A stretch of DNA of 64,000 nt. Origin: an uncultured archaeon (lineage in GTDB: Archaea > Nanobdellota > Nanobdellia > Woesearchaeales > CAIVOO01). The notes below the pieces were generated by a model. It saw only the letters and a program-made list of their open reading frames with translations, made no database searches and was not told the origin of the DNA. The translations under genes and the position numbers were made by a program. This document shows, piece by piece, positions 4,969 through 63,847 of the stretch; positions within the stretch are counted from its first letter, which is position 1; the number at the start of each line of letters is the position of its first letter. Location: assembly GCA_903904885.1 (NCBI GenBank), contig CAIVED010000012.1, positions 34,130 to 98,129 of the forward strand, in the 5' to 3' direction.

Positions 4969-5159
4969 AAAATCCCGTTTTCTGGTTCTTGCATTATGAT
5001 TAAAGTTGCTTCGGCTTCTTCTGCTCAAGTGCCATGCAAGAAAACATCATTACTTGACGAGCGCAGAGAAGCGAGTCAAGTTAGGCAGTTCTGGCAATTC
5101 AGGCGAACAGTCAACGCAATATGCCCCAAATAAGAACTGCCAAATAAAAATTATTTTTT
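4969..5159 (+). repeat. Repeat element copy A (forward orientation) of a 6-copy family
   Basis: AAAATCCCGTTTTCTGGTTCTTGCATTA ... GCTTCTTCTGCTCAAGTGCCATGCAAGAAA ... hairpin ACTTGAC-GAGCGCAGAGAAGC-GAGTCAAGT ... CTGGCAATTCAGGCG ... TAAGAACTGCCAAATAAAAATTATTTTTT. Confidence 0.8.
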
Positions 5160-5190
5160 GTTAACAAAATAAAAGATAAAAAAGAAACAA

Positions 5191-7368
5191 TTACTGATTC
5201 TCCGTCAGCCCTTTTCTTGTCCTGATTTGCCCGACTATCTTCATCTGCTGGTCTTCAGGAAGCTTCTCGAATGTCTGGTCTACCACAAAGAAAACGCCTC
5301 TTCCTTCAGTGGCCGAACGCAAATCAGACGACAGCCCGAACATCTCTGCGACAGGCATCTTTGCTTTTACAACAACAGTTTCACCTTCCTGCTGCATGTC
5401 CATTAGCTGCCCTCTCTTGTTCTGGACAAGCTTGGAAATGTCGCCCATCTTGTCAACAGGGGCTTCTATCTGCAATGTCTGAACAGGCTCGAACATCATA
5501 GGCGCTGCCATTCTCATTGCATCTCTGATTCCGTCCCTTACCGCAGGCAAAACCTGCGCCGGTCCTCTGTGGATTGCATCTTCGTGCAGTTTAATATCCA
5601 TAAGATAAACCTTGACCCTGGTGCATGGCTCCCTTGCAAGAGGGCCGTGCATCATCACATCCTCAAATGCATCCATTACCATTTCAATTACTTCCCCGAT
5701 ATGGACCTCTCCCTTGGTCATATCAAGAAGCATGTTGCCGTTGAATATCATCCTGACCTGCCTTGATTCCTTGTTTGACATGCCATTTCTTTCAAGGGCC
5801 TGCCAAAGCTCATTGTCTTTTTTCTTTACTTTTATGTCGGAGATTTCTCCGCTCTTGATTGCATCCGCAACTCCCTGCTCAACAGGGCAGGCTAGGAAAT
5901 AGAACTTGTTGTGCTTGTTTGGGGACTTGCCCTCTGATTCCTGGGCACTCTTTTTTACGATGGCCTCCCTGTAAACAACAAGAGGCGGGCTTGTGGTTAC
6001 CTCAACGCCCTTTTCTGTCCTGATTCTGTTTTCAATGACTTCCAGATGCAGTTCTCCCATTCCGTGCATCAGGTGCTCTCCTGTCTCTTCGTTAATTTCA
6101 ATTTTTATTGTAGGATCTTCCTTGTGAACCATTCTCAAAACTTCAACAAGCTTCGGTAGGTCCTGGGGCTTCTTTGCCTCAATGGCTTTTGTGACAACCG
6201 GCTCAAAAATGTGGGTAATCTGCTCGAATGGCGTCAGTGGCCCTATTGAAACTGTCTCACCGGGCATTCCATATTTCAGGCCCACAACGCCGATAATGTT
6301 TCCAGAAGATGCTGCGTCTATCAGCTCTCTTTTTGCGCCGTTATAGACCGAAACCTGCTGGACTCTTACCGACTGCTTTGCCATGTTAAGGTAAACAGTG
6401 TCTCCTTTTTTTATTGTTCCTGAGAACATTCTTCCTGCGCATACCTCGCCTGCATGCGGGTCCATGACAATTTTTGTTATTACAAATGCAAGAGGGCCGT
6501 TTTCATCGCAGTTAAGCAATGATTTTCCCTCAGTGCTTTCCAAATCCCCTCTCCAGATTTTTGGAATCCTGTATTTCTGCGCCTGGACAGGCGTTGGATG
6601 ATGCTTTATTGACATGTCCAAAATTACCTTATGCAAAGGCGCTTTTTTTGAAAGCTCTTTTATCCTTGTGTCATCCTGCGACTGGTAGGCGTCAATTATA
6701 TCCTTGAATGTTATGTTGTTTTTCTTCATGTAGGGAACAGACAAAGCCCACTTGGCGAATGCGGAGCCAAATGCAACGCTTCCGTCCTCAACCTTTACCT
6801 TCCATTTTTCCTTGAATTCCGGCTCTGCAATCTGCTCAATCAGCTTGTTAACATGGGCAATTATTTTCATGAAACGCTCCTGCATCGCCTCGGGCGTAAG
6901 CTGAAGCTCCTTGATTAACCGGTCAACCTTGTTTATGAAAAGGCATGGCTTGACCCTTTCTCTTAGCGCCTGCCTGAGAACTGTTTCTGTCTGCGGCATG
7001 CATCCTTCTACAGCGCAGGCCAGGACAATCGTCCCGTCAATGGCTCTCATAGCTCTTGTAACGTCCCCGCCGAAATCAACGTGGCCAGGAGTGTCAATAA
7101 GGTTGACAAGATATTCTTTCCCTTCGTTTTCATGGACCATTGATACATTTGCAGCATCAATAGTAATGCCTCTCGTCATCTCGTCCTCATGAAAATCAAG
7201 AACGCAGGCCTTTCCCGCAAGCTCTTCGGACATCATTCCTGCGCCTGCAAGAAGATTGTCCGAGAAAGTGGTCTTTCCGTGGTCAATGTGAGCAGAGGTG
7301 CAGATATTCCTGATATGCTCCTTGTCCCTCATCAATCTTATAACCTTATCAACCATCTTTTCTGCCAT
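5191..7368 (-). CDS. fusA: Translation elongation factor 2 (aEF-2)
   Basis: 725 aa. HIDHGKTT G-domain and the diphthamide-site motif DAIHRGPAQ. Confidence 0.95.
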   Translation of the reverse strand: MAEKMVDKVIRLMRDKEHIRNICTSAHIDHGKTTFSDNLLAGAGMMSEELAGKACVLDFHEDEMTRGITIDAANVSMVHENEGKEYLVNLIDTPGHVDFGGDVTRAMRAIDGTIVLACAVEGCMPQTETVLRQALRERVKPCLFINKVDRLIKELQLTPEAMQERFMKIIAHVNKLIEQIAEPEFKEKWKVKVEDGSVAFGSAFAKWALSVPYMKKNNITFKDIIDAYQSQDDTRIKELSKKAPLHKVILDMSIKHHPTPVQAQKYRIPKIWRGDLESTEGKSLLNCDENGPLAFVITKIVMDPHAGEVCAGRMFSGTIKKGDTVYLNMAKQSVRVQQVSVYNGAKRELIDAASSGNIIGVVGLKYGMPGETVSIGPLTPFEQITHIFEPVVTKAIEAKKPQDLPKLVEVLRMVHKEDPTIKIEINEETGEHLMHGMGELHLEVIENRIRTEKGVEVTTSPPLVVYREAIVKKSAQESEGKSPNKHNKFYFLACPVEQGVADAIKSGEISDIKVKKKDNELWQALERNGMSNKESRQVRMIFNGNMLLDMTKGEVHIGEVIEMVMDAFEDVMMHGPLAREPCTRVKVYLMDIKLHEDAIHRGPAQVLPAVRDGIRDAMRMAAPMMFEPVQTLQIEAPVDKMGDISKLVQNKRGQLMDMQQEGETVVVKAKMPVAEMFGLSSDLRSATEGRGVFFVVDQTFEKLPEDQQMKIVGQIRTRKGLTENQ

Positions 7369-7370
7369 AG

Positions 7371-8027
7371 TTATTTACCTCGCAATTTGTCAAGCACCTT
7401 TTTGCAATCGTCTATTACGTGAAAATTTGGATGGTTCACATCCAAATTTGCATCAATTTCAGCCAGCAAGCCCTTTTTCCTGTAAAACTCAATCACCGGC
7501 CTGGTTTCATCATTGTAAATTTTCAGCCTTTTTTTAAATACTTCCATCTTGTCATCGTCTCTCTGATAAACCTCGCCGCCGCACTTGTCGCAGACGCCCT
7601 CAACCTTTGGGATAATATTTGTCAAATGGTAAATCGCTCCACAGCCTCTGCAGGTCCTCCTCCCGGTGGCTCTTCTAATGAGGGTTTCCTCATCAGCAAT
7701 GAAGTTTAACGCAACATCAATTGATGCGATTCCTTCAAGCGCCTCTGCCTGGGCGACTGTTCTTGGGAAGCCGTCAAGGAAAAATCCGTCTCTGCAGTCA
7801 TCTTCCTTCAATCTTTGCCTGAGCATACTTGTGGTGATTGCGTCAGGCACAAGTTTTCCTGCATCAATGTATGCTTTTGCCTCAACTCCAAGATCAGTAT
7901 TATTTCTTATATTTGCTCTAAATAGGTCTCCTGTGGAGATATGCGGTATTTTGTAAATATCTTTCAAATATCTTGATGCATAGGTTCCCTTTCCTGTGTT
8001 AGGCGCTCCTAAAAGCACGACCTTCAT
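7371..8027 (-). CDS. adk: Adenylate kinase, long form with zinc-binding LID
   Basis: GAPNTGKGT P-loop. CRGCG...CDKCGG Cys4 LID. Confidence 0.9.
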   Translation of the reverse strand: MKVVLLGAPNTGKGTYASRYLKDIYKIPHISTGDLFRANIRNNTDLGVEAKAYIDAGKLVPDAITTSMLRQRLKEDDCRDGFFLDGFPRTVAQAEALEGIASIDVALNFIADEETLIRRATGRRTCRGCGAIYHLTNIIPKVEGVCDKCGGEVYQRDDDKMEVFKKRLKIYNDETRPVIEFYRKKGLLAEIDANLDVNHPNFHVIDDCKKVLDKLRGK

Positions 8028-8781: not shown

Positions 8782-8785
8782 TTTT

Positions 8786-9094: not shown

Positions 9095-9095
9095 T

Positions 9096-9649: not shown

Positions 9650-10693
9650 GTGTGTGTTAATATGACAAAGGAAAAACAGCCAAAACATCAAGAGCAGGGC
9701 GATACGAGAAGGAATCTGCTAATCGGCGGCGGCGCCGCGGTTGTTGCAGGATTGGCATCACTATACATCTCAGGTAGGGCAAAAGCCCCTGATGAACAGT
9801 GGCCGTTTTTGCACAGGGAACAAATTCTCAAACACCCAAAAATGGAACAAATAGAGAAGGAATTTGTTCCTTTCGGACTGGAACAGGATATTTCATATCC
9901 CTGGGAAATAGAGGAGCTAAACAATATCCTGAGGACGCAAATTTCAGAAGAGATGGCGAGAAGAGGTTTTGACCCTTCAATTGAATATGTCATTGAGCCA
10001 AGTTGCAGGTACTGCGGGTTGCCTGATGAAGCAAAGGTTACAAAATCTTTGGCAGACTATTGCAGAAATGCTGCGGGTTTCATGCAGGCCCGTCTAAGAA
10101 TGGAAAAATTTAATCCGGAATTTACAATCCTAACTCCGGGTTCAGATTTTGAAAACGATTTTAATGGCCGGGTTTTTATTGGAAACAGCTATTGTTTCCT
10201 GAGAAAAATGGATGTAATCAATCCCGCTGATCCTGGCAAAAATTTTTCTGCATTCGCAAAGGAATGTTTGCAGGGTGGCATGAGCAGGGGAACGGTTGAT
10301 AAAGGAAATCGCGACTGGTGGTATGGTTTTGTGGCAGCAGGGGAGGGCGCATTGACAAGTGCATTCTCCGAAATCCTTCACAGGTCAACCATGGTTAAAT
10401 TTTATGAGCACATGCAATCCGCAGGTTTCGAGGCGGCCCAGGCAGATGAGGCGGTTGTTGAGGGCATTGCTTACATTCTTTCATCTGCTCTTGCAAAGGA
10501 ATTGAAAATTCCTGATGGAGCCGGCATTGTAAGGAAGGCAGTTTCAGATCTGCTAACAGATAAAATATGTGCAACCAGATATAAACATCTACCCAGTGCA
10601 GTAAACTGGATGAATAAAAACGGCATCCAGAATGCCTACGACTTGTACATGCAAGACCCTCAGAAGTTTATGGATGCGATTAAAAAATCATAA
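9650..10693 (+). CDS. TAT-signal secreted protein, paralog 1 of a tandem triplet (unknown family)
   Basis: Twin-arginine signal DTRRNLLIGGGAAVVAGLASL. Shares GSDFEND, GFVGNSYC, SPFSEL, EGIAYILS and C-terminal NGIQNAYDLYMQDPQKFMDAIKKS with the next two genes. Confidence 0.6.
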   Translation: MCVNMTKEKQPKHQEQGDTRRNLLIGGGAAVVAGLASLYISGRAKAPDEQWPFLHREQILKHPKMEQIEKEFVPFGLEQDISYPWEIEELNNILRTQISEEMARRGFDPSIEYVIEPSCRYCGLPDEAKVTKSLADYCRNAAGFMQARLRMEKFNPEFTILTPGSDFENDFNGRVFIGNSYCFLRKMDVINPADPGKNFSAFAKECLQGGMSRGTVDKGNRDWWYGFVAAGEGALTSAFSEILHRSTMVKFYEHMQSAGFEAAQADEAVVEGIAYILSSALAKELKIPDGAGIVRKAVSDLLTDKICATRYKHLPSAVNWMNKNGIQNAYDLYMQDPQKFMDAIKKS

Positions 10694-10705
10694 TTTTAAG
10701 ATGAT

Positions 10706-11725
10706 ATGACAAAGAAAAAACAGCAAAAAAAGGTTGAAACTCAAAAGCAAGATAGGAGAAATTTTCTTAAAGTTGCTGCAGCATCTCTTGTTCCGGTTTT
10801 TCTTAGATCTCAAAATTCTGATACTAACAAATGGGACTTTTTGAATGCAGAATCAAAAGCAGACAGCATAAAAGATGTTGAACAGGTTTATTCAGATGGA
10901 GTTCCTCTTGAGAGTGAAGGAGATGCGGCCTATAACTTCCAGGTTGCAGACATTCAGAGAAATATGGAATCTGAAGGAATTATGCAGGAAATGAGGAAAA
11001 AAGGCATAAATGCTACCATAAGGCTTACAAAACAGACTTTCGGAATTCCGGATGCCCGGTACGGAAAACAAATGGGAGCATATTGCAGGACTGCTGAAAG
11101 ATATATCAACCAAAAAATCAGGCTTATAACTCCAATAAGTTTAGACTGGGTTGTGCTGGCAAGCGGGGATAATTTTGAAAATGATGATACCAACAAAGGT
11201 TTTGTTGGAAACTGCTATTGCCAGCTATATCATGCAACAGCAGGAGAGCTGGGCAATCCCGCACGGTCTGTTGACAGGAAAGTCTTTTTGGCTAAAAATG
11301 GCGGGTTAACCAGCACCAGCACTGAAAAAGACAAGTTTATTTCCGGATTCGTGTTTATAGGGACAACTGCCTGCGCGCTAACAAGCCCCTTTTCAGAGCT
11401 TCTTGCCCTTCATTCAGAAGACCAGTTTAACGCCCATTCCGCTAAATCTGCTTCATCCATAGGAATGCAAACAAACGAAGCATGGCATGAAGGACTAGCG
11501 TTCATACTTTCTTACAAGCTTGCAGCAGAATTAGGCATTCCTGGAGGCCCCGAATATGTTATGAAAACTGTCAGGAATCTAGTGCAGTTGGGGAGAGAGT
11601 ATGAATATCTTGGAAACTCAATAAGATGGATGCAGAAAAATGGAATCCAGGCAGCCTATGACCTCTACATGAGAGATGACCCTCAGAAGTTTTTTGATGC
11701 GATAAAGAAATCCGGAATAAAATGA
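10706..11725 (+). CDS. TAT-signal secreted protein, paralog 2
   Basis: DRRNFLKVAAASLVP (RRxFLK). GDNFEND, GFVGNCYC, SPFSELL, WHEGLAFILS, NGIQAAYDLYMRDDPQKFFDAIKKS. Confidence 0.6.
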   Translation: MTKKKQQKKVETQKQDRRNFLKVAAASLVPVFLRSQNSDTNKWDFLNAESKADSIKDVEQVYSDGVPLESEGDAAYNFQVADIQRNMESEGIMQEMRKKGINATIRLTKQTFGIPDARYGKQMGAYCRTAERYINQKIRLITPISLDWVVLASGDNFENDDTNKGFVGNCYCQLYHATAGELGNPARSVDRKVFLAKNGGLTSTSTEKDKFISGFVFIGTTACALTSPFSELLALHSEDQFNAHSAKSASSIGMQTNEAWHEGLAFILSYKLAAELGIPGGPEYVMKTVRNLVQLGREYEYLGNSIRWMQKNGIQAAYDLYMRDDPQKFFDAIKKSGIK

Positions 11726-12732
11726 CAAAAAAAGAACGAAATACTTCAAGAAGAACCGCCCTTTTAGGAATCGGAGCACTGGCCTCACTTCCATTTATCC
11801 TAAGCTCTGACGACGGCTCTACTGAATTTTCCGGGGAAAAGCTGAATTTTTTTAACCGTGAGATATTTATAGACCGCTTTGCAGAAACCCCGGAAGGGGT
11901 ATACCAAAATTGCGTTGCGCTTTGCCCTGAAATCCTCATGCCGCAGAGTTTCGAAGCGGAGCGGCTGAAACAAATCTGGGGCGACGGGATTGCCGGGGAA
12001 ATTGAAGAAAAGGGCATGAGCCCCCAAACAGATGTTTCGCTCAGGATGCAGTTTTTCGGGCTACCCGATGGCGCTGAATTTATGGTGCCCCTGAAAGGCT
12101 ATTGCGAAAAGGCATCGCGCTATCTTTATTCGCAGCTAAGTGGGCTGGAAAAACAGGCTATGGAATGGATAATAATAAAGCGGGGTGATAATTTTGTGAA
12201 AAATTGCGGCAACAAAGGGTTTGTCGGGAACAGCTATGGCTATCGGGTGGTGGCCTTTGCAGAAAATCCCCGTGAGCCGGGCAAGCCGATTTTAAGGGAG
12301 GCATTTTACCCGTTCCACGGAAGCACTGCCTATTCCCATAAAAAGGAAACCCTGCTGGAAGTCAACCCGTTCAAATTTATTTTTATCGGGGTTGGGGGGC
12401 GGGCATTTGCTGCCCCGTTTTCCGAACTTATCGGGCTTTCAACAATGGAGAGGATGAATCAGAATGACGGGCTTACTTTTTTGGAAAGCATTCAATCCAA
12501 TGAGGCTATGCATGAAGCAATCGCAGATTCGCTTGCGCAGGGCATTTTGCGCGAGATGAATGTTTCCGAACGGGAGGGAGCTATCAAAAAAACCAGGGAT
12601 GCCCTGGTCGACCCGAAATATTCCTATGTCCCGAACGCAAGGAAATTTGTAGAACGAAACGGCATTCAGGCAACCTTTGACCTTTACATGGAAAGCCCAA
12701 AGAAGTTTATGGAAGAAATAACGAAATCCTGA
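11722..12732 (+). CDS. TAT-signal secreted protein, paralog 3
   Basis: SRRTALLGIGALASLPF. GDNFVKN, GFVGNSYG, APFSELI, MHEAIADSLA, NGIQATFDLYMESPKKFMEEITKS. ATGA overlap with paralog 2. Confidence 0.6.
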   Translation: MTKKERNTSRRTALLGIGALASLPFILSSDDGSTEFSGEKLNFFNREIFIDRFAETPEGVYQNCVALCPEILMPQSFEAERLKQIWGDGIAGEIEEKGMSPQTDVSLRMQFFGLPDGAEFMVPLKGYCEKASRYLYSQLSGLEKQAMEWIIIKRGDNFVKNCGNKGFVGNSYGYRVVAFAENPREPGKPILREAFYPFHGSTAYSHKKETLLEVNPFKFIFIGVGGRAFAAPFSELIGLSTMERMNQNDGLTFLESIQSNEAMHEAIADSLAQGILREMNVSEREGAIKKTRDALVDPKYSYVPNARKFVERNGIQATFDLYMESPKKFMEEITKS

Positions 12733-12772
12733 GAGAAAACCTTATAAAACCCGCAATTTTCTATATTATATA

Positions 12773-13735
12773 ATGGACAGCAAAACAGATGAGCTAATCA
12801 GGCGGAACACAGAGGAAATTGTAACAGAAGAGGAATTCTCGGAAGTTCTGAAGAAGAAGAATCCGACTGTCTACTGCGGCTACGAGCCTAACGGGCCAAT
12901 GCACCTTGGGCATTTTGTAACAATCACAAAGCTTATGGACCTGCAGAAAGCAGGTTTCAAGGTAAAGATTCTTTTGGCAGATGTCCATGCGCTTTTGAAC
13001 AGGAAGGGAAGCGAGGAAGACATTGCAAAGGAAGTTGAGAGATGGAGAAAAACAATCAAGGCAATCGGCTGCGAGGCGGAGGTTGTTTTGGGAAGCTCCT
13101 TCCAGTTTGCAAAGGAATACCAGCTGGATGTCATGCGCCTTGCCCAGGCTTCAACAATCAACAGGGGATTGAGAAGCATGCAGGAAATCGCAAGGGACAT
13201 TGAAAATGCAACAATTTCGCAGCTGATGTACCCGCTTATGCAGGTTGTTGACATCAAGGCATTGAAAGTTGACGTTGCTCTTGGAGGAATAGAGCAGAGA
13301 AAGGTCCACATGATTGGCAAGGATTTGGCAAAAATACTGGATTACAAATTTGTTGCATTCCATACTCCGTTGATTACCTCATTGAAAGGGCCCGGTGAAA
13401 AAATGTCAAAATCAATTCCCGGCTCGGGCATTTCGGTAACCGATTCCTATGAAGAAATCCAAAAAACAATAAGAAACGCCTACTGCCCCGAGAGGGTCAA
13501 GGCAGAAAACCCTGTCCTTCAGATTGCGAGGCTGATAATTTTCCCCAGGTTTGAGAAAATAAAAATAGAAAGGCCTGAGAAATTCGGGGGCAATCTTGAG
13601 ATAAAAAATGCCGACGAGCTTGAAGAGATGTACGGGGAAGGCAAAATCCATCCATTGGACTTGAAGAACGCAGTCACCGAGCACCTGGAGAAGATAGTCG
13701 GGCCGATCAGGGAGCAGTATAATTCTATAAAATAG
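12773..13735 (+). CDS. tyrS: Tyrosyl-tRNA synthetase (archaeal type)
   Basis: YCGYEPNGPMHLGH (HIGH) and KMSKS. Closely co-linear with the M. jannaschii TyrRS sequence recalled from memory (RPEKFGG, HP[LM]DLKNAV). Confidence 0.9.
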   Translation: MDSKTDELIRRNTEEIVTEEEFSEVLKKKNPTVYCGYEPNGPMHLGHFVTITKLMDLQKAGFKVKILLADVHALLNRKGSEEDIAKEVERWRKTIKAIGCEAEVVLGSSFQFAKEYQLDVMRLAQASTINRGLRSMQEIARDIENATISQLMYPLMQVVDIKALKVDVALGGIEQRKVHMIGKDLAKILDYKFVAFHTPLITSLKGPGEKMSKSIPGSGISVTDSYEEIQKTIRNAYCPERVKAENPVLQIARLIIFPRFEKIKIERPEKFGGNLEIKNADELEEMYGEGKIHPLDLKNAVTEHLEKIVGPIREQYNSIK

Positions 13736-18641: not shown

Positions 18642-20450
18642 TTATTTGGCAGCTTTTATCTTTGTGTTTACATCCTTCAAAAGTGTGTCAATGGCAGACT
18701 GGTCAACCTTTTTGTTGCTGGTCAATGCATTTACATAATTTTTGTCGTTTAATACTGACTTGACTTCTTGCCATGCTTTGTCATTATTTGAACTTGCATA
18801 GGTTCCCAGGGTTTTCATTATGCTCTGAGCCTGGTCTTTGGTTAGGTCATAGGAGCCCACAGTATTTTTTCCTGAGATGTACTTCCTCAGGCCGGCAATC
18901 CGGTCATTTTCATTGGCAACTGTATCAATCATGCTTGCAGATGTTACCGGTTTATATGTGGTCCCCATTGTTGCAGAAACCGTCCCCCGCCCAAGGGGCT
19001 GGTCAGTAACCTTATCGACAAGATTAACAGGGTGGGCATCTCCAACACTTTTGAAGCTTCCCCTTGTTATTTCCAAAATCTCGCCAAACTGTTTTGCATC
19101 AACTCCGCTGGCCATTATTTTAAACTCATCAGAGCCAGAGCCCTTTTCCATCCATATTTGAACTCCGGGGTGGGTATTCTCATATCCCTTAAGTTTTTGC
19201 GCAGCGTCCGCATAAAATGAATGGTAAACCTCATCAGCACTGCTTACTTTCAGATTCTTAAACAAATCCCTGGCATTGTCAATATCCCCGTCTGCCCTGA
19301 AATATGTTTTGCCGCTTCCGACTATTTCAGTTTGTTTAGCAAGGCTTGCCTGGTAATCATAGATTGCAATTGACGTTCCTTTAGCCGCATCATTAGCATT
19401 GCTCTCAAATCTGGCAGGCCTTTTTGCCATCTCATTAAGCATGTTCGCACGGTCCTCCACATTTTTCAGGAGAGCTGTGTTTGATGGGTCTTTCGAAAGC
19501 GCTGCCCTGGCATCATCCAGTTTTTTCTTCGCATCATCAACAAGGAACAGGCTGTCCGTCTGGGCTTCGGGAGGAATGAAGTTATGGTATTTATCCAAAA
19601 AGTTTGTTGCGTCTGTTGGGCTCATCCCGGCAGTCAACTGTTTGAAATCAAATGTCCCAGAACTTGTTTTCTGGTACTCTGCGGCAGCGCCTGCCTCCTG
19701 CAGCCCCTTGTAATAAAGATCCTTTGCATCAGTCCTGGCTATTCCCGCTTTGGGCGCTATTGTCGTTGTTCCCATTCTTAGGCTCCCGGTTATCCCTTCA
19801 TTAGCAAAAGGCGCCGGCAGTGACTTGGTGACATCTGATTGTATTTCTCCAATAGCTTTGCTCAGCTGTTCAGGGGTTATCCGATTGGATGTTACAATGA
19901 ATGAGCCAGAAGCTCCTCTTGAAACAATGGCATCCGGATCGAGCGCTGCCATCTTCTTTGTAATGGCATCGCTTGTTTTTTCTATCAGAACATTCCCTGA
20001 AAAATCCGCGGCCTCATGGCCTGCAAGGCTGTTTACAAATGTCAAATCCGCCAGCTCAAAGACAGCAATCGTTACCGGCTTCCCGTTGCCGCCCATAACC
20101 TGCTTGTAAATTGCATCAACAGAGCCCGAAACATATGTAGGCCTATTGGTCAAAGAGTCTACGCCTGAGTAAATTTCCTTTGAGGTTTTGCCTACAACGC
20201 TTTTTGACCCGGCGCCAGTGACTTCTCTTGCAGGATTCTGCACATCTTTAAAAGCAGTTTCAACACTTGCAGAGAACTGAAGGCATTCTGCCCCACCTCC
20301 AGCACCGCCCGCAGCAGCGCTTCCGGTTACACTAGCAACTGACCCGCTGCTTCTCGTCGCTGCAAAAATCATTCCGAGAACCAGCAGAAATGCCATGAAA
20401 AAAAGAATTTCAGACCTTGCCATCCGGTTTTTTATCATCTTCACCCGCAA
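18642..20450 (-). CDS. Large secreted hypothetical protein (602 aa)
   Basis: N-terminal hydrophobic signal. GSVASVTGSAAAGG...ECLQFSASVETAFKDVQNP is shared with 16895..17956. Confidence 0.55.
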   Translation of the reverse strand: MRVKMIKNRMARSEILFFMAFLLVLGMIFAATRSSGSVASVTGSAAAGGAGGGAECLQFSASVETAFKDVQNPAREVTGAGSKSVVGKTSKEIYSGVDSLTNRPTYVSGSVDAIYKQVMGGNGKPVTIAVFELADLTFVNSLAGHEAADFSGNVLIEKTSDAITKKMAALDPDAIVSRGASGSFIVTSNRITPEQLSKAIGEIQSDVTKSLPAPFANEGITGSLRMGTTTIAPKAGIARTDAKDLYYKGLQEAGAAAEYQKTSSGTFDFKQLTAGMSPTDATNFLDKYHNFIPPEAQTDSLFLVDDAKKKLDDARAALSKDPSNTALLKNVEDRANMLNEMAKRPARFESNANDAAKGTSIAIYDYQASLAKQTEIVGSGKTYFRADGDIDNARDLFKNLKVSSADEVYHSFYADAAQKLKGYENTHPGVQIWMEKGSGSDEFKIMASGVDAKQFGEILEITRGSFKSVGDAHPVNLVDKVTDQPLGRGTVSATMGTTYKPVTSASMIDTVANENDRIAGLRKYISGKNTVGSYDLTKDQAQSIMKTLGTYASSNNDKAWQEVKSVLNDKNYVNALTSNKKVDQSAIDTLLKDVNTKIKAAK

Positions 20451-23400
20451 GGAACATGGCTCCAGTCCTTAACAACATTTGGATCCTTCTCCTTAAGCTG
20501 GCTGAGTGTTGCAGCATCTATCTCTATTGTCCCCTTATCGGCATCATACTTTATGCTTGGGTTCTTTTCCACAAGTGCTTTCATATCACCTTTAACCCTT
20601 TTCGCCTCGGCAAACTCGTCTGCTATCGCTTTATTGGAGCCCTGCAAAACTGTTTCTGCATCCTTCTTTGCCTTAGTCTCTGCGTCCTTTTGCAAAGCCT
20701 CGATAGACTGAACAAGGTTAGAATCCTGAATTGTAATCTTTTTGCTCAATGAACCCTCTGCAAGTTCTTTGATGCTGGTTTGTAATGGTTTCCCTGCGGA
20801 TTCTGCTGCAATCTGGCCTGTTTTCTGGTCAACTGACTTAATGGTATATGTTACTCCATCTTTGATGAATGTTCTGCCTTCCCAAGAAGCTTTTGTTAAA
20901 ATGCTCTTTGCCGCTGGAAGGTTTCCTATGCAGGTGCCTATAAACAGGCACTCAGCCTGCGATGCCGTAAACTCAAAAAGCTTGGCGCCGATTCCTGTGT
21001 AGGCCCTGGTCAATAAATTCTGGCCGGCGGTTAGCGCCGCACTCTCAAAGCCAATCCTGCTCACTCCTGTCAATGCTGCTGAGGCAAGATTCTCTGCGCC
21101 AAAACCTACCGCAATCTGTATGGCTGCGCCTGCGGCATATTCCCCTGATGTTAGCTTTAACAGCTCAGCCCCCTGGACAAAGGGCATGTTAAAAAAGGTG
21201 GTTTTTGTCGGCATAGCTTCGGGCATATTAGGCTTTACGAGTGCCTCTACCACATCCCAGAATTGTGGGCCAACGTTTGTAATCACATTTTGTGGGTCCT
21301 CTCCTTTCCCAAGGCGCCGGAGTGCCTGGAATGCAGGATTAGCAACCCCGTTGGTCACTAGTTTACTTCCAAGCATGTCCAGAGTTTGCTGATCCTTTGT
21401 TGCCGGGAAAAGCTCTGCCACCAGTTCTCTCCTCCTCGTTGGGTCAGACAATGCTGATTGTATATCATCTATGCTCATACCACGTTTTGTATACAAGTTC
21501 ATGAATACCCCCATTGCCCAGGCTTGGCTGTTAAGGTTACTGTTCATCCAGGTTATAAGATCGGTCCTCGTTTGGAAATTTATTAAATTCGTGCCTGCTG
21601 TAGTAAACCCTGCAGCTTGACCGTAAGTTTCTTCAAATTTTTGCCGATTCTCAGTAATCTGGTTCTTTGCGTTTTGCTGTATCATTGACAATGATGCTAT
21701 TGTCACCTGCTTTTTTATATCCTGGGACTCCCCATAGAACGGGGAGTCCGGCTTAACCTTGGCAAAATAGCTTATCATCTGAGCATAAGATTCATCAGCG
21801 AATAAAACTTTATTTTCAGGCCTTAGCAAGTTATATCTGGCGAGTTCCAGTTTTCCGGCAGCGTAATTGTTGAAGTCCTGGTCGTTGAATTTTTTCATTT
21901 TTTGCAGTATGGTGTCTGCTTTTCCAAAATATTCACCCTTTTGGTTGTTAACTATGTAACTATTCAGCAAATCAGCGGCAATTTTAGTGTCCGGCTTTGC
22001 GCTTGCCGCAACAAAAAGGTCAAAATATGCCTGCTTGGCGTTAACTGATGCGCTGTCCTTGGAATTCTGGTCGTTATAGTTTGCATAGAGCTTGATTAAA
22101 TCTTCTGCAGCTTTGCAGTTGTTCGGAGTTTTGCAATTTTCCAGAATTTGCTGAGCATCAAATAACTTTTGGTATACCTTTGCATCCTCTGTCCCTGCTG
22201 CGTTTTTCAGAAGCTTCGCTTTTGTATCAGGGCTCAGTGATCTAACCGCGCTTAATAAACCATCACGGCTGTTAGAGCTAAGGCCCATAATTGCAGTCTT
22301 CTGCTGCGAGCTTACACTTGAAGCATCCCCTCCGAGAAGCTGTCTCATCCGGTCAGGCCCCAAAATATTTACATATTTGCCCTGGGAGCCTTCCAGGCCT
22401 TTTATCTGAGTTGCAACGGAGTTCTCAAGAAGCAACCCCTGTGAATTCAGCCCGAGATAAACAGTCCCCTTCACATCGCTCAAAAGAAAATCCTTGCCTC
22501 CGCCGGGAACTATGTTCCATCCTTTGTTTGCTGCATCCCCGAATGCGCCGAGGGTTTCTCCTGAAAGTTTTACGTTTAATTTATCGCCTGTTTTCGAGAG
22601 ATCCATGGAAACTGCCTTGTCTTTATTTGTATCTTTGTTCCCGTTGAAGAACTTTGCATCCACATCCAGATGCATGAACTTTTTGGAATTTCCAGGCCCG
22701 TCCACGGTCATTGCATTGGCAGTGGGTGTTGAAACAAGGGACATTTTTATAAGTTGAGGATTTTCCCCATTGCCGTATACAGTTGTGTCCGCCTTCAGCT
22801 CACGGACTCCCTTGTCATTGTATGTTTCAAACTTGAACCTCCCGAGGGAAGTTGTAAGAAAAACATTTTGCCTGTTGGGGTCCGGTCCCCTGTAAAAGCT
22901 TGCCTCGGCCCCTGCGCTCTGGTAGGCGTATGCGAGGGCGGGGCTGCTGATTTTACCCTGGGATTTCAAAGACATGGAATTGTCAGCCTTGCCTGCCTTA
23001 AAGCTGACATAGCCATTTGAAGTTATAATGTAATCGTTTCCCATGGTCTTGTACCATATTTCTCCCCCGAAATTAGGGGGTTTTGGCGGAGGGTTTGCCT
23101 TTGCCGCCTCGGCTCTTTTATCAATCTCCGCAGGGGTAAGCGGAGTGGTTTTCCCGCCATCTGTATGGCCCGCATCTCCCGGAAGATACTCTGAATGAAC
23201 AACTACATTATATCCTGCTGTTGATATGGCAAGGTCCTTGCCGTTTGGGTTGAACTGCACAAAACTGCTCTGCTTGCCATTCAAAAAGAAAAGGCTGGTG
23301 TCATCACCTTTCTTTTCAAAACTTCCGTCATAAAGCCTGAATCTTCCGGTGTCATAAACTTTCGCACCCTGTGAACGGATTGTGTTTCCCTCATTCTCAA

Positions 23401-29392: not shown

Positions 29393-29475
29393 GCAAAAAA
29401 ATGGCTGCTGGTTCTTGCACTAGCTTAGATGTTTTACCTCCTTCTCCTGCACGAGCGCCATGCAAGAAATAAGTT
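29393..29475 (+). repeat. Repeat element copy B (truncated, 5' module only)
   Basis: AAAAAAATGGCTGCTGGTTCTTGCACTAGC...CTCCTGCACGAGCGCCATGCAAGAAATAAG. Confidence 0.6.
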
Positions 29476-38750: not shown

Positions 38751-38793
38751 TTATTTTAGAAAATTTTATATACCAAAAGGGGAAAACACAACC

Positions 38794-47649: not shown

Positions 47650-47657
47650 AATCAAAA

Positions 47658-47757
47658 CGCCGTGGCCCGGATTTGAACCGGGGAATCCTTGCGGAAACAA
47701 GCTTACTTTGCATTTCTGGTTCCAGGCTTGCGCAGTACCAGGTTGTGCCACCACGGC
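47658..47757 (-). tRNA. tRNA-Ser (anticodon GGA), type II, with a 16-nt intron at position 37/38
   Basis: Minus-strand GCCGTGG...acceptor CCACGGC + G73. Anticodon stem CAAGC/GCTTG. Loop CTGGAA[CCAGAAATGCAAAGTA]A, where the intron CCAG pairs with loop CTGG. Long variable arm TTTCCGCAAGGATTC. T-arm CCCGG-TTCAAAT-CCGGG. Confidence 0.7.
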
Positions 47758-47805
47758 ATGGGATTAAGAAATATAGTTATTTTATAAAGTTTTAGATATT
47801 AAAAA

Positions 47806-47990
47806 ATCCGTTTGCTGGTTCTTGCATTACGCTTGCTGTTTGTTTGGCTTCTTCTGCTTAAATGCCATGCAAGAATTATATGTTTACTTGCCGAGCGCAG
47901 CCGAGGCAAGTTATGCAATTCCGGCAATCCGGGCAAACAGAGAAAACAATAGACAGAGATAAGAATTGCCCAGAAAAAAAGATTTTGTTA
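47806..47990 (+). repeat. Repeat element copy D (forward)
   Basis: AAAAAATCCGTTTGCTGGTTCTTGCATTA ... GGCTTCTTCTGCTTAAATGCCATGCAAGAA ... hairpin ACTTGCC-GAGCGCAGCCGAG-GCAAGT ... TCCGGCAATCCGGGCAAACAG ... AATTGCCCAGAAAAAAAGATTTTGTTAT. Confidence 0.8.
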
Positions 47991-48007
47991 TAAAGTGTAA
48001 AGAAAAA

Positions 48008-48319
48008 TCAAACTTCAATCATTTCAATCTCAATATTCAATCCCTCAGGGATTGGCACACGCATAACCAGCCGCAAGGCCCTTTCGTCAATTCCCAAATC
48101 AACAAGCCTCTTGTGAATTCGCATCTCATACCTTTCCCAGGTCGCTGTCCCGTTGCCGCAGGGCGTTTTCCTTGTGGTAACCTTCAGCTTCTTGGTTGGC
48201 AGAGGAATCGGCCCCCGCATCTCGACGCCTGTTTTCTCAGCTATGTCTTTGATGTAGTTGCAGACCTCATTCACCCGGTCTATGTTGCTGCTCGCGATTT
48301 TTATTCTTGCTTTTTGCAT
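48008..48319 (-). CDS. rps10: Ribosomal protein S10
   Basis: [11 protein letters not shown]...[22 protein letters not shown]...[12 protein letters not shown]. Confidence 0.9.
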
Positions 48320-49854: not shown

Positions 49855-49927
49855 TGGACCGGCCGGGATTTGAACCCGGGCCCCACCCATGCCATGGGCG
49901 AATTCTGCCAGGCTATACTACCGGCCC
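49855..49927 (-). tRNA. tRNA-Ala (anticodon GGC) with G3:U70. D-stem unusually weak.
   Basis: Minus strand GGGCCGG...CCGGTCC+A. Anticodon stem CGCCC/GGGTG, loop ATGGCAT. T-arm CCGGG-TTCAAAT-CCCGG. The D-stem GTAT/GAAT has a mismatch plus wobbles. Confidence 0.6.
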
Positions 49928-53015: not shown

Positions 53016-53186
53016 ATGGCAGAGAATCTTATTGTCAAGGCAAAGCTGAAGGACGTGTGCAAGGGCTACAACGTTGCCGGCGATTTGGCTGATGCTCTCA
53101 ATGAAAAGGTTGAGACATTGCTCAAGGACGCAATGAAAAGGGCAGACGCAAACGGCCGAAAGACGGTTATGGCTAAGGACGTTTAA
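53016..53186 (+). CDS. Short histone-fold protein (56 aa; archaeal-histone-like but lacking helix alpha3)
   Basis: Manual translation MAENLIVKAKLKDVCKGYNVAGDLADALNEKVETLLKDAMKRADANGRKTVMAKDV. It aligns with HMfB ...IKLARHAGRKTIKAEDI. A GAGGTG SD-like motif lies upstream. Confidence 0.5.
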   Translation: MAENLIVKAKLKDVCKGYNVAGDLADALNEKVETLLKDAMKRADANGRKTVMAKDV

Positions 53187-53212: not shown

Positions 53213-53447
53213 TAAAAAACCCGCTTTCTGGGCAAGCCTTAACTACGCTTCCTGCTTTTTATTGTTGCCCTGATTGCCAGGCCTGCTATAACTTGCATTC
53301 GGCAAGTAATACGCAAGAAAACCCCTTGGGTTTTCTGCGCGCAGAAAAGCTTTGCTTTTCTTGCGTTTTTTTCTTGCATGGCACTAAAGCAGAAGAAGCA
53401 AAACAAACGTAAAGACTAATGCAAGAACCAGAAAACTGGATTTTATT
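53213..53447 (-). repeat. Repeat element copy E (reverse orientation, with an internal ~60-nt insertion)
   Basis: Reverse complement reads AAAATCCAGTTTTCTGGTTCTTGCATTAG...GCTTCTTCTGCTTTAGTGCCATGCAAGAAAAA[insertion]TTACTTGCC-GAA-TGCAAGT...GCCTGGCAATCAGGGCAAC...GGCTTGCCCAGAAAGCGGGTTTTTT. Confidence 0.8.
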
Positions 53448-53471
53448 TTAGAGTTTACATAATAACGAAGA

Positions 53472-54032
53472 TTATTGTTTAATTTCAGCCAATATTTTCT
53501 TATTAGAATCTATCATCGACCTTAGCCTTGCCAAATCCTCTTTCTTTGTTCCTTTTTTGGATTTTAAATTGTTGAATTTCTGCTCCAGAAGTTTCAGCTT
53601 CTGCTCAATCGCCAGAATTTCTGACCTTTCCCCGGCAACTTCCTTCTCAAGCCTTTCCTCTGTCTCGCCAATCTTCCCGAGTTTCATCACATTCTCAGAC
53701 AATCTTGAGGAAATCCTCTCAAAGTCCGCAAAGGGCTTTGCGCTGACAGCTGGGTTTATTGCTTGGATTTTTTCCTGCAGCTTTTTCATGGTCTCTGAAT
53801 TTACGACCTGGGCCTCGACCATTTCCCCAACTTTTTTCTCAAGATTTTCCAGCTCTTCCATAACTGCGGATTTCTGCCTTGCACCGGCAGACAAATCTTT
53901 TATTCTCTGAATCTGGTCCGAAATCTGGGACTTTGCCCTCTGCTTTTGAGCAATTCTTTTTTGGGTGACAGCGAGAGTGGTAAGAAAATGCTTCAGGCTT
54001 TGTGCGCTTAGTTTTGTTTCAGAATCCATCAT
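53472..54032 (-). CDS. Coiled-coil protein (187 aa), ATGA-coupled to the upstream coiled-coil gene
   Basis: MMDSETKL... with heptad-like charged repeats. The longer ORF to 54248 is a low-complexity artefact that overlaps the upstream gene. Confidence 0.45.
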   Translation of the reverse strand: MMDSETKLSAQSLKHFLTTLAVTQKRIAQKQRAKSQISDQIQRIKDLSAGARQKSAVMEELENLEKKVGEMVEAQVVNSETMKKLQEKIQAINPAVSAKPFADFERISSRLSENVMKLGKIGETEERLEKEVAGERSEILAIEQKLKLLEQKFNNLKSKKGTKKEDLARLRSMIDSNKKILAEIKQ

Positions 54033-54574
54033 CCAAAAAGTCCTTTTTTCTTCACAGGCATGGGCGGCATTGGCATTCCAGGTGACGGAGGCGCCGGCAC
54101 TGAAGGCGGTCCCATCTGAGGCCTCTGCCCCATTTGAGGCGCCATGCTTGGCATCCTTTGCGGTGCCATTGGTCCCGAAGGCCCCTGCATCATCATCGGC
54201 CTTGGCTGCATCTGCTGCTGCACAGGAGCAGGCTGCTCCTCCCTCCATGCGGGCTTTCCTGTTGAAAGCATGTCCGCAACAGCAACAATGCCTCTGGCAA
54301 TCTTTTGATTCTGGTCAACAAGCATGTCAATCTTCGCGAACAGCGGGTCCATCTTTCTCCCGATTGTTTCTGTTTCCCGCTCTTCCAGCTTCATCTCCTC
54401 GGCAGCTGCGCTGAACAGATTGATAAGAGAATTTATCGCCTTTGACAGATTGTTAACAGATTCTATGAAATCGTCAGTCGCATAGGCCTGGAAGGGATTT
54501 TTCTTTATCTGCTCAACATCCCTCTTCAGCTTAAGAACCTCTTCTTCAGGAACAATAGCATAATCCTTCGCCAT
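54029..54574 (-). CDS. Coiled-coil protein with a Pro/Gln/Met-rich C-terminal tail (181 aa)
   Basis: MAKDYAIVPEEEVLKLKRDVEQIKKNPF... and C-terminal QPAPVQQQMQPRPMMMQGPSGPMAPQRMPSMAPQMGQRPQMGPPSVPAPPSPGMPMPPMP. Confidence 0.45.
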   Translation of the reverse strand: MAKDYAIVPEEEVLKLKRDVEQIKKNPFQAYATDDFIESVNNLSKAINSLINLFSAAAEEMKLEERETETIGRKMDPLFAKIDMLVDQNQKIARGIVAVADMLSTGKPAWREEQPAPVQQQMQPRPMMMQGPSGPMAPQRMPSMAPQMGQRPQMGPPSVPAPPSPGMPMPPMPVKKKGLFG

Positions 54575-60895: not shown

Positions 60896-60961
60896 ATACT
60901 AGCTTATGTTAAAAAAACGCAAAAGAGGCACCGAGTAAGATGTTGGCGAGGTGGATTAAAA

Positions 60962-62098: not shown

Positions 62099-62100
62099 AA

Positions 62101-62798: not shown

Positions 62799-62857
62799 TA
62801 AGCGGGGGAGATTTACGAAAACCTTTATAAACCACCCCCAAATTCTGAGAGTGTAAG

Positions 62858-63643
62858 ATGCCAAAGCAGACTGTAGAAGCAATGATTGAAGGGGGAAAGG
62901 CAAGCGCCGCACCTCCATTGGGGCCAGCTCTAGGACCAACAGGCCTTAACATAGCCCAGGTCATACAGAAGATAAACGAGAAAACAGCTGCTTTCAAGGG
63001 AATGCAGGTTCCTGTCAAGGTTAATTTTGATCCTTCTACAAAAGAATTTGACATTGAAATCGGAACGCCGCCGACTTCCTCTTTGCTGAAAAAGGAAGCA
63101 GGAATAGAAAAGGGCTCTGGATTTGCGAAAACAGACAAGGTCGCGGATTTGATGATTGAGCAGATTATAAAGGTTGCAAAGATGAAGGAAGATTCCCTCA
63201 ACGGCGCAACCATGAAAGAGAAAGTAAAGAATGTAATCGGCACCTGCACTTCCGCAGGAATCCTTGTTGAGGGAAAAGAATCCGCAGAGGTCATAAAAGA
63301 CATCAATGCAGGCAAATACGACAAGGAAATTGCCGCAGGAAAGACAGAGCTTACTGCAGAAGAGATGAAGACTCTTGAAGAGGAGAAGAGGAAGCTCAGG
63401 GAAGAGAGCGACAAGAGGCATGCCGATGAAGAGAAGAAGGCAAATGACATTATCTCTTCAATGGAAGGCAAGGAAAAGAGCGCTGTCAGGGCCAAGCTCA
63501 GGGAAGCTGGAATATCCGAAGCACTTGTCGTCAAATTAGTTGCCACCATTGGCGGGCCAGCAGCCGGGGGAAAAGCAGCCGGTGGCAAGGGTGGCGCAGC
63601 ACCTGCAAAGGGAGCAGCACCCGCCAAGGGCGGTAAGAAGTAA
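62858..63643 (+). CDS. rpl11: Ribosomal protein L11 with a ~100-aa Lys/Glu/Ala/Gly-rich C-terminal extension
   Basis: PPLGPALGPTGLNIAQVIQKINEKT. 261 aa versus a typical ~160. The tail ends AAGGKAAGGKGGAAPAKGAAPAKGGKK. Confidence 0.85.
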   Translation: MPKQTVEAMIEGGKASAAPPLGPALGPTGLNIAQVIQKINEKTAAFKGMQVPVKVNFDPSTKEFDIEIGTPPTSSLLKKEAGIEKGSGFAKTDKVADLMIEQIIKVAKMKEDSLNGATMKEKVKNVIGTCTSAGILVEGKESAEVIKDINAGKYDKEIAAGKTELTAEEMKTLEEEKRKLREESDKRHADEEKKANDIISSMEGKEKSAVRAKLREAGISEALVVKLVATIGGPAAGGKAAGGKGGAAPAKGAAPAKGGKK

Positions 63644-63660
63644 GTTATTTTTTCTTTCTT

Positions 63661-63847
63661 AAAAAAATAAAACCATTTTCTGGGCAGGTCTTAACTACAA
63701 TTCTTTTTATCGAAGTTATGCTTGATTGCCAGGCCTGCTTTAAATTGCCCTGGGCAATTGAATATCCTTTCTTGCATGGCACTCGGGCAGAAGAATCTGA
63801 ACAGAGCTGGGAGTTAATGCAAGAACCAGCAAACGGGATTTTTTAAT
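63661..63847 (-). repeat. Repeat element copy F (reverse orientation)
   Basis: Reverse complement reads AAAAAATCCCGTTTGCTGGTTCTTGCATTAAC...GATTCTTCTGCCCGAGTGCCATGCAAGAAAGG...hairpin AATTGCCC-AGGGCAATT...GCCTGGCAATCAAGCA...GACCTGCCCAGAAAATGGTTTTATTTTTTT. Confidence 0.8.

Follow-up and report, generated by a model that had tools for sequence, protein, structure and literature searches.

A dispersed family of intergenic elements with a covarying three-hairpin core in a Woesearchaeota-type archaeon

Several kinds of short structured repeats are known from prokaryotic genomes. The repetitive extragenic palindromes (REPs) and bacterial interspersed mosaic elements (BIMEs) are dispersed bacterial repeats that lie outside genes, at gene 3' ends and in convergent spacers, where they form the tails of messenger RNAs (mRNAs) and stabilise the message or modulate termination; REPs are single palindromes of 20-40 nt with a conserved 5' tetranucleotide, and they are mobilised by REP-associated tyrosine transposases (RAYTs, TnpA-like Y1 transposases). 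Correia elements are co-transcribed with neighbouring genes. The Rickettsia palindromic elements (RPEs) and the enterobacterial ERIC/IRU repeats are structured selfish repeats of 100-150 nt, old and diverged with the fold retained, which also persist in the reduced genomes of symbionts; each consists in essence of a single long imperfect palindrome, and insertion of RPEs into coding genes is in frame. Palindrome-associated transposable elements (PATEs) derived from IS200/IS605 are known in archaea; each end must carry a tight subterminal hairpin, the tetra- or pentanucleotide at the cleavage site is conserved, and the genome has to contain a TnpA/TnpB gene. Here we describe a family of non-coding elements, typically about 185 nt long, in a 64-kb stretch of DNA from an uncultured archaeon (contig CAIVED010000012.1; the whole stretch is called the window).

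Comparison of the copies with one another indicates a genuine dispersed family under selection for secondary structure. We propose, with a probability of roughly 45%, that the element is a slowly mobile, lineage-restricted, non-coding and non-autonomous repeat whose core would act as an RNA module on mRNA 3' tails, the transcription part being what we infer from the arrangement of the genes. An earlier note on this DNA had left the choice between a structured non-coding RNA (ncRNA) and a miniature inverted-repeat transposable element (MITE). The element is probably both, a repeat that is gained and lost, with a core under constraint to fold as a single strand.

The repeat family and its folded core

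The family is represented in the window by five full copies and one truncated copy (A to F, Table 1) of about 185-235 nt; lengths reach 250 nt in copies with nested inserts. Together the copies make up about 2% of the window sequence, and their density is 94 copies/Mb (6 in 64 kb). For the two 12-mers with the highest conservation, 7 and 6 occurrences were counted where 0.45 and 1.07 would be expected by chance, and these counts were reached in none of 100 dinucleotide shuffles of the window. When the covariance model R1 was run over the whole 64 kb with filters off, exactly six family loci were returned (56-155 bits), and the remaining matches had E > 0.1, except for low-scoring antisense echoes at the family loci. 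All six copies are aligned by MAFFT, with the same ordered modules in each. The coordinates and strands that the earlier note had assigned to six copies were borne out by reading the intervals, by MAFFT and by the 12-mer counts, and the covariance-model search that it had proposed gave no further locus in the 64 kb; the order of the modules and the P3 stems listed there (ACTTGAC/GTCAAGT, ACTTGCC/GGCAAGT, ACTTGC/GCAAGT and AATTGCCC/GGGCAATT) are as described. A seventh match to CTGGTTCTTGCA, at 41993-42004 on the minus strand, was set aside as a chance occurrence: it lies inside an open reading frame (ORF, 40997-42112) and has nothing else in common with the family.

On the sense strand, the core consists of three consecutive hairpins, P2, P3 and P4. 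P2 (UUCUUGCAU/AUGCAAGAA, 9 bp) is nearly invariant and closes a loop of 38-40 nt that carries the motifs GCUUCUUCUGC and UGCC. P3 is a variable stem of 6-8 bp, often capped by a mini-helix set between two GA dinucleotides. P4 is an 8-bp long-range helix (GCAnnnCU/AGnnnUGC) whose A-rich loop of about 40 nt starts with GGCAAU; its 5' strand, GCAnnnCT in the DNA, abuts CTGGCAAT (RNA form CUGGCAAU), and its 3' strand, AGnnnTGC, lies directly 5' of CC(A)G. The two motifs of the P2 loop, GGCAAU and UUAAG are invariant and single-stranded. P4 is absent from the earlier note; it was noticed by eye, was then recovered by RNAalifold and shows strong covariation. RNAalifold applied to six sequences recovers P2, P3 and P4, and a free RNAalifold run on an 18-sequence model alignment gave no additional helices.

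The covariation was assessed in three ways. Anchor-based extraction from 16 copies gave 14 distinct P3 stems and 11 distinct P4 stems, almost all of them perfectly paired. When the duplex formed by the two strands of one copy was compared, free of any alignment, with duplexes formed across copies, P4 gave -9.23 kcal/mol (own) vs -5.91 kcal/mol (cross) and P3 gave -6.35 vs -2.24 kcal/mol; for both helices, 0 of 20000 permutations matched the observed value. In a structure-blind MAFFT alignment of 13 copies, 93.5% of the cells are paired, against 30-48% when the partners are slid by 1-3 columns, and 8 pairs show double-sided change, against 0-3 in the slid controls; similarly, a model-based alignment of 18 sequences has 92.8% of cells paired and 11 double-changed pairs, against 0-2 slid. 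The compensatory changes that had been read as selection on structure are therefore seen in P3 and extend to P4.

Two further pairings were considered for the core. A pseudoknot or tertiary pairing between GCUUCUUCUGC of the P2 loop and GCARGAAGC of the P4 loop was rejected (own -8.04 vs cross -7.67 kcal/mol, 3862 of 20000 permutations as good). UGCCA and UGGCA are both invariant, and the idea that they pair has no variation to be judged by.

Another finding concerns the strand that folds. Within P2-P4, G·U cells outnumber A·C cells by 14 to 4 (about 13 to 2 in intact copies), and two of the four A·C cells belong to the dead copy B. In the copy of L031 (DNA from outside the window is designated by L numbers), which was found without the P2 pattern, a U-A pair of P2 is changed to U·G, and a second P2 U·G occurs in copy C. 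In addition, the copies with a long P3 loop share the arrangement GA, 2-bp mini-helix with GCA or GCAA, GA; the mini-helix covaries (GC/GC, GU/AC, AG/CU). The arrangement is meaningful on the sense strand only, and the opposite strand reads UC...UC. Tandem G·A closure is an RNA-type, K-loop-like motif. These features favour the strand with the A-run towards its 5' end and the T-run towards its 3' end as the one that would fold.

Position at gene ends and a proposed role on mRNA tails

According to simple ORF calls, with Pfam support wherever it could be had, 14 of the 18 copies have the same orientation as the gene 5' of them (one-sided binomial probability about 0.015, by hand), so that the orientation is not independent of the neighbouring genes as had been thought. 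At least nine copies lie in convergent spacers, 0-40 nt from stop codons. Six of the twelve co-oriented cases (A, E, F, L006, L008 and L031) lack a T5 run between P2 and the stop codon upstream, and in L008 and L012 the upstream stop codon is the first TAA of the element's A-run. The oligo-T tract described earlier after the 3' end is present in most copies: a run of T5 or longer follows P4 within 30 nt in 13 of 17 copies, by reading.

Based on this arrangement, the following mechanism is proposed. Gain and loss of copies at the 3' ends of genes would have extended over long periods. Most copies would be transcribed as the tail of the upstream mRNA by a predicted read-through, because most are co-oriented with the upstream gene and no terminator intervenes, and transcription would end at the element's own oligo-U tract. 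Selection would then preserve the folded RNA module, whose most plausible function, as a structure at the 3' end, would be to define transcript ends or to protect them, and a protein may be bound to the invariant P2 region. The data show the family, its structure, the bias towards the sense strand, the patchy occupancy and the bias in position; the read-through and the 3'-end role are inferred. A more far-reaching version, which we put forward tentatively and with more doubt than confidence, would see here a new class of structured RNA module of Woesearchaeota-type DPANN archaea, with a three-hairpin core of about 160 nt under purifying selection at about a hundred loci in a genome of about 1 Mb, domesticated as a slowly mobile supplier of 3' ends or terminators or as a recruiter of an RNA-binding protein; it would be an independent archaeal counterpart of REP/BIME and a far more elaborate one.

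DPANN genomes are among the smallest and most streamlined cellular genomes known, and yet the old repeat copies keep three helices. As these are kept by compensatory change, the fold is under selection, either for the propagation of the element or for the host. If it acts as RNA on mRNA tails, this would be the first description of a REP-like 3'-end system from Archaea, and it would offer a handle on the formation and stability of transcript ends in organisms that are not culturable alone. Either way, the covariance model provides a clade-specific marker and a new entry for RNA or repeat databases.

Several observations weigh against the proposed explanation. Single-sequence folding energies are not better than those of shuffles on either strand (z = -0.57 sense, -0.54 antisense), so that the evidence for structure is comparative and not energetic. 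P2 is almost invariant, and the two U·G substitutions (copy C and L031) are all that speaks for its pairing. G·T wobbles are tolerated in single-stranded DNA (ssDNA) too, and the strand bias is for this reason compatible with a strand-specific ssDNA intermediate of the same strand. For four of the 18 copies (B, D, L004 and L013), the orientation relative to the neighbours, antisense or divergent, does not allow them to form the 3' tail of an upstream gene; L004, L012, L013 and L014 carry T5-T7 inside the 5' end motif, which could halt read-through before P2. Finally, the preference for convergent spacers would be equally expected for any selfish element from purifying selection on harmful insertions.

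Table 1. Coordinates of the family copies in the window and of their parts (both strands of each helix are given, 5' strand of the element first)
Feature	Coordinates	Strand	Score (bits)	P2	P3	P4	Terminal runs	Remarks
Copy A	4969-5162	+	138.6 (R1)	4986-4994/5034-5042	5052-5058/5075-5081	5085-5092/5133-5140	A-run 4969-4972; T-run 5154-5162	full length
Copy B	29393-29475	+	56.4 (R1)	29412-29420/29460-29468				truncated
Solo 5' fragment	38523-38565	+		38548-38556 (5' strand)				end motif and P2 5' strand; directly upstream of copy C
Copy C	38572-38757	+	132 (R1)	38597-38605/38645-38653 (one U·G pair)	38663-38669/38673-38679	38683-38690/38730-38737	T-run 38749-38757	full length
Copy D	47801-47989	+	155.1 (R1)	47819-47827/47867-47875	47886-47892/47905-47911	47915-47922/47962-47969	T-run 47983-47989	full length; P3 loop GAGCGCAGCCGA
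Copy E	53213-53449	-	126.3	53419-53427/53371-53379	53302-53307/53291-53296	53279-53286/53232-53239	T-run 53213-53219	full length
Copy F	63661-63844	-	142.8 (R1)	63817-63825/63769-63777	63753-63759/63743-63749	63731-63738/63684-63691 (one C·A)	T-run 63661-63672	full length

The settings of the copies in the window are as follows. Copy A, which has the GA...GA motif in its P3 loop and a weak 3' end motif, lies between a small ORF (4828-4959, +) and the stop codon of EF-2 (5191-7368, -). Copy B is decayed: it keeps the 5' end motif and P2 and nothing after P2, the 5' strand of its P2 reads TTCTTGCAC, which leads to a C·A mismatch, and it adjoins the stop codon of a gene of the histidine triad (HIT) family (29497-30006, -). 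Copy C has an ORF (37748-38515, +) and a HIT gene (38734-39204, +) as neighbours, the true start of the latter probably being the ATG at 38795; the solo 5' fragment before it is a remnant or a partial duplication. Copy D is antisense to both of its neighbours, a cytidine-deaminase-family gene (47218-47754, -) and rpS10 (48008-48319, -), and the placement of one copy between rps10 and a tRNA-Ser gene was mistaken: the only tRNA genes of the window are at 39233-39351 (+, with an intron) and 49855-49927 (-, Ala). Copy E, with the best terminal inverted repeat among the window copies, is flanked by convergent genes for a 186-aa protein (ORF 53472-54248, -) and a 56-aa protein (53016-53186, +). Copy F lies between the stop codon of a minus-strand gene (near 63850) and that of rpL11 (62858-63643, +).

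Some features of these neighbourhoods deserve mention in their own right. The rpL11 product is 261 aa long, with the L11 N and C domains in its first ~137 residues, followed by a long Gly/Ala/Lys/Pro-rich tail; a 261-aa product is also called on other contigs of the window's strain. The HIT genes (DcpS_C-like) of the window number three (29497-30006, -; 30003-30602, -; 38734-39204, +). Copies B and C each adjoin one of them, and the copy of L012 adjoins a tandem HIT pair (1160-1567 and ~1555-1974, -); this association with a rare gene family, in 3 of about 19 copies and in three different arrangements, may be coincidence or real. Intron-bearing tRNA genes occur in the window, in L019 (471-637, -), in L012 (1987-2088, -) and in L002 (858-948, +), with introns of about 48 nt in the window and about 95 nt in L019, and several of these genes are at most one gene away from a copy of the element; the one in the window was missed by ARAGORN and found by the Rfam tRNA model only. 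The cumulative GC skew of the window declines steadily, is lowest near 58-60 kb and increases after that. Copies A-D are in plus and copies E and F in minus orientation, the switch lying between 48 and 53 kb, which with six copies is not significant; a link between orientation and the direction of replication, if true, would bear on a model of ssDNA transposition.

Copy E contains a palindromic double-hairpin insert of about 55 nt, of the form CAAGAAAA-x-loop-x'-TTTTCTG / CAGAAAA-y-loop-y'-TTTTCTTG. It is located after P2 in copy E (53309-53365), inside the P3 loop in L007 (146-205), and in L010 (1228-1239), where it begins at the same position as in E. The inner stems of the insert covary, its outer stem mimics the sequence of the P2 helix, and it was found nowhere else among the 288 kb examined. 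The insert may have arisen as a duplication of P2, or it may itself be a very small mobile palindrome.

Distribution, age and alternative explanations

Thirteen further copies were found outside the window: eleven pattern matches in metagenomes, one copy in a metagenome-assembled genome (MAG; L002) and one at L031/L032, to which the half-decayed copy of L019 is added. An exact-pattern scan of 185,579 representative genomes returned one true match, L002, and a pattern scan of JGI metagenomes returned the 11 new copies, each on a separate contig. L003 (Thiotrichales) and L009 were discarded as chance matches of the search pattern in coding regions, and viral contigs scanned with two patterns gave no family match. 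The metagenome contigs share no DNA with the window apart from the element. The genes next to their copies are unrelated housekeeping genes (archease, L35Ae, triosephosphate isomerase, CutA1, arginine decarboxylase, FKBP, a permease and HIT), and a survey of neighbours for a partner protein gave only genes of this kind. Two copies were reached by synteny walks, without the search pattern, namely that of L019, which retains the P4 domain and has lost P2, and the full copy of L031/L032. The invariance of P2 among pattern-derived copies is an ascertainment effect, and the unbiased sample consists of the six window copies, L019 and L031.

In L016, the spacer of 167 nt between a PRC-barrel gene and the element (5860-6026, -) is richer in GC and forms two very stable hairpins followed by T5; its fold has -66 kcal/mol (z = -6.3, 0 of 200 shuffles), and no Rfam family matches it. 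This spacer is a candidate for a separate structured RNA or a terminator.

The window encodes EF-2, EF-1a, rpS10, rpL11, GluRS, Cpn60 and FtsZ, in addition to many large proteins without a Pfam match. The host is a DPANN archaeon (Woesearchaeota-like) because the named rpS10 relatives of the window are Candidatus Woesearchaeota or Nanoarchaeota. The sole representative genome with the element, MAG CAZAIK01 (GCA_964485195.1; L002 and L021 are CAZAIK010000001.1 and CAZAIK010000002.1), was deposited as 'uncultured Methanosarcinales archaeon'. This label is very likely wrong, because its rpS10 (90%), EF-1a (84%) and GluRS (69%) sequences group with the Woesearchaeota-type relatives of the window. 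The family is restricted to this Woesearchaeota-type (DPANN) lineage.

Other genes of the window include very large ORFs of 602, 1204, 655 and 1618 aa (18642-24055, -; 26261-28228, -; 30700-35556, +), mostly without a Pfam match, which probably encode surface proteins of the kind typical for DPANN symbionts; beta-helix/NosD repeats are present in the 1618-aa protein, whose gene contains internal DNA repeats with a 69-nt period at 31636-31880. Four tandem paralogous genes at 9650-13735 (+), for proteins of about 320-347 aa, have conserved C-terminal ends and share repeat blocks of 35-72 nt; the one member that was scanned had no Pfam match.

Pairwise identity in the family is flat at 68-81%, whether copies are compared within the window, across genomes or between two copies at the same site, and the window copies (70-77% identical to each other) are not closer to one another than to copies of other genomes. 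Young subfamilies are absent, and the family therefore does not stem from a recent burst. Stem positions differ at a third to a half of sites, and 96-99% of stem cells are still paired; this combination of old divergence and paired stems demands that the fold be under selection, in situ or in the lineages that seed new copies.

The presence of copies at corresponding sites is patchy. About 90 kb of relatives' DNA, scanned with filters off, holds 2 copies, against 6 in the 64-kb window, and marker proteins give the branching order ((window, L029), L019/L031), then L017, L021 and L023. The two genes flanking copy E are convergent neighbours in all lineages compared. Their spacer measures 285 nt with copy E in the window vs 12 nt, empty, in the sister lineage L029/L030; in L031/L032 it measures 215 nt and contains a full copy in the same orientation, and it is empty in L017/L018 (59 nt) and L021 (40 nt). 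One gain with one clean loss and two hits in the same spacer are equally parsimonious histories of this site. At the D site of relatives, rpS10 is followed by a protein of ~480-507 aa of unknown function and then by the deaminase, and copy D replaces this gene in the window (47794-48007, compared with L027 470-1974 and L026 398-601; both have a gene of ~487 aa, and the rpS10 of L026 is 98% identical in DNA). According to the same-strain contig map, a 484-aa gene is located about 8 kb past the right end of the window, and the ~487-aa gene may have moved elsewhere in this strain. At the A site, downstream of EF-2, relatives have no copy. Some copies decay, as is seen from the truncated pieces (B, the solo fragment before C, and L019).

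This history bears on an explanation at the level of DNA, which we judge fairly unlikely: a plain non-autonomous transposon, either a MITE or a PATE of IS200/IS605 type, whose hairpins would serve transposition only, for example as strand-specific ssDNA or transposase sites, with no RNA role and with a 3'-end position that reflects tolerance of insertion. The patchy occupancy of orthologous sites, the truncated and partial copies, the nested palindromic insert at two different positions and the lack of a partner gene in cis all agree with it. So does the form of the ends, where the 5' motif AAAA(Y)AAAA-W-CCC-K-TTT-K-CTGG (AAAAYAAAAWCCC...CTGG) and the 3' motif CC(A)G-AAA...GGG-W-TTTT-R-TTTT are imperfectly inverted, with a complementarity of -8.8 kcal/mol vs -3.8 for shuffled ends and -4.9 for the outer flanks (0 of 300 shuffles). 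Moreover, a 2024 census by MITE-Tracker (PMC11602168) reports 'a Woesearchaea genome' among those with the highest archaeal MITE densities, at 105/Mb, and describes no structure. The census software may already have flagged this element family, since the window density of 94/Mb is close to that value.

The ends themselves fit such a transposon poorly. They are the least conserved part of the element and the interior is the most conserved, the reverse of what is expected of a MITE recognised by its terminal inverted repeats; the inverted motif is strong in about 5 of 15 copies (E, L013, F, D and L012) and weak in the others, and its 5' half is missing from L031. The ends had been interpreted as a terminal inverted repeat or a closing stem. 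A motif above chance stands at the family level, and the closing stem finds no covariation: end pairing has the same energy within and across copies (-6.13 vs -6.14 kcal/mol), which leaves no copy-specific complementarity, the 4-bp CUGG/CCAG core is paired in 67-68% of cells, and an extended closing stem P1 was rejected on these grounds as a covarying RNA helix. The check for target-site duplications (TSDs) that the earlier note had suggested gave no signal, the longest k-mer common to a copy's own flanks averaging 6.07 nt vs 6.48 nt across copies (18473 of 20000 permutations as good), with a power limited by the AT-rich flanks. A 9-mer flanking copy D is within chance (9% of cross pairs reach at least 9 nt), no common tetranucleotide is evident in the flanks of the copies, and the exact insertion boundaries at the E site could not be read from filled and empty alleles, the spacers being too diverged to align.

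The interior and the surroundings point the same way. Nearly every copy has compensatory change in its stems, which neutral decay after insertion would not give, and the flat identity without young subfamilies does not suit a transposon of this kind. Neither the window ORFs that were scanned nor the genes next to the copies include a transposase, and the viral contigs scanned contain no copy. P2 and P4 close loops of about 40 nt, unlike the tight subterminal hairpins of IS200/IS605. The plain form of the MITE option is not supported, with no TSD signal, no transposase nearby and copies that are old and uniformly diverged. If the element is purely selfish after all, it would be a MITE-like rule-breaker (no TSD, weak ends, constrained interior), and an uncharacterised, probably strand-specific mobilisation would follow.

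Independently transcribed genes for small RNAs (sRNAs) of about 160-190 nt, each with its own promoter and oligo-T terminator and acting in trans, perhaps within a ribonucleoprotein that would recognise the invariant P2 region, with P3 supplying an L7Ae-type K-loop, are in our view quite unlikely. Such genes would explain the covariation and the sense-strand bias, the invariant single-stranded motifs, the terminal T-run and the GA/GA motif in P3; they would also explain D, B and L013, which cannot be 3' tails of upstream genes, and the filling of the E site in two diverged lineages (window and L031). However, no conserved promoter-like element was found at a fixed distance upstream of the copies, where the A-rich end motif is the sole conserved sequence; from the estimated archaeal spacing between TATA box and start, this motif as a TATA box would place the start inside P2. 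The flanking DNA is unrelated among copies, and the sister lineage L029 has no copy in syntenic DNA, a state not expected if an essential RNA acted in trans. Some copies are truncated, and the co-orientation of 14 of 18 copies would be unnecessary for autonomous genes.

A module of double-stranded DNA in which TTCTTGC/GCAAGAA and the A/T tracts are bound by, for example, a chromatin protein, a regulator or a recombinase, and in which the helices are by-products of palindromic sites, is very improbable. The heptamer GCAAGAA or its complement does recur in both strands of P2, in many P4 loops and in the outer stem of the nested insert, and P2 is invariant and does not covary; however, P3 and P4 vary freely and stay complementary (14 and 11 stems), as fits folding, and the excess of G·U over A·C is strand-specific, an asymmetry that duplex DNA would not have. 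A micro-ORF, read either in reverse as a MAL-x-QKK... peptide of 10-13 aa or in sense from the ATG in GCCATGCAAGAA, is close to negligible and was rejected because the frames disagree between copies: in the six window copies the reverse ATG in CATGGC does open 10-13 codons, often ending at the TAA in TTAATGCAAGAACC, and the sense frame reaches the TAA of UUAAG in D, E and F, but the P2 loop of 38-40 nt shifts the reverse frame in L004, L006 and L014, the sense frame is only 6-7 codons long in A and in the majority of metagenome copies and is another one in C, and the conserved blocks are invariant at all three codon positions, with variation that is compensatory and not synonymous.

Comparison with known systems

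None of the 4227 families of Rfam 15, searched at gathering thresholds and at E <= 5-10, matches the element, which agrees with the earlier statement that no known family fits; the set presumably includes the curated IS605/HEARO-type RNAs, none of which matched. No description of the element was found in the literature searched. With the curated ncRNA families of Rfam 15 the element shares a covarying structure, invariant motifs in its loops and a T-run that resembles a terminator; it differs from typical ncRNA genes in its density of about 90 copies/Mb, its truncated copies and its patchy occupancy.

The PATEs of IS200/IS605 and the omega/reRNA scaffolds of TnpB share with the element the lack of a TSD, a strand-specific structure and structured ends. 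The element differs from PATEs in that P2 and P4 are dissimilar, their loops measure about 40 nt and an inverted end motif is present; neither TnpA nor TnpB was seen in the 64 kb or beside any copy. From RPE and ERIC it is distinguished by its several hairpins, its strictly intergenic position and its strong blocks of primary sequence.

The prokaryotic MITEs (Correia/NEMIS of Neisseria, MITEs of Sulfolobus) are small intergenic repeats of 50-800 bp that occur in multiple copies; they are non-coding, lack a transposase of their own, have inverted end motifs and differ in presence among related genomes. In these respects the element is similar: it is small, non-coding, multi-copy and dispersed (6 + 13 copies), it has no consistent ORF, and the A, D and E sites are empty in relatives. 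It departs from MITEs in the absence of a TSD, in the weak or missing ends, in the strand-biased three-hairpin interior, in the lack of any cognate transposase found and in its old, uniform divergence, there being no near-identical recent copies in the window.

The position of the copies, with at least nine in convergent spacers and 14 of 18 co-oriented, resembles that of REP/BIME. Compared with a REP, the element is longer (about 190 nt), has three distinct hairpins, two large conserved loops and an invariant helix, and is archaeal; no Y1-transposase (RAYT-like) domain was found in the window ORFs scanned. By analogy, the element would be most like REP/BIME or Correia in its working, that is, like structured repeats on mRNA tails, and it is MITE-like in size, copy number and non-coding character.

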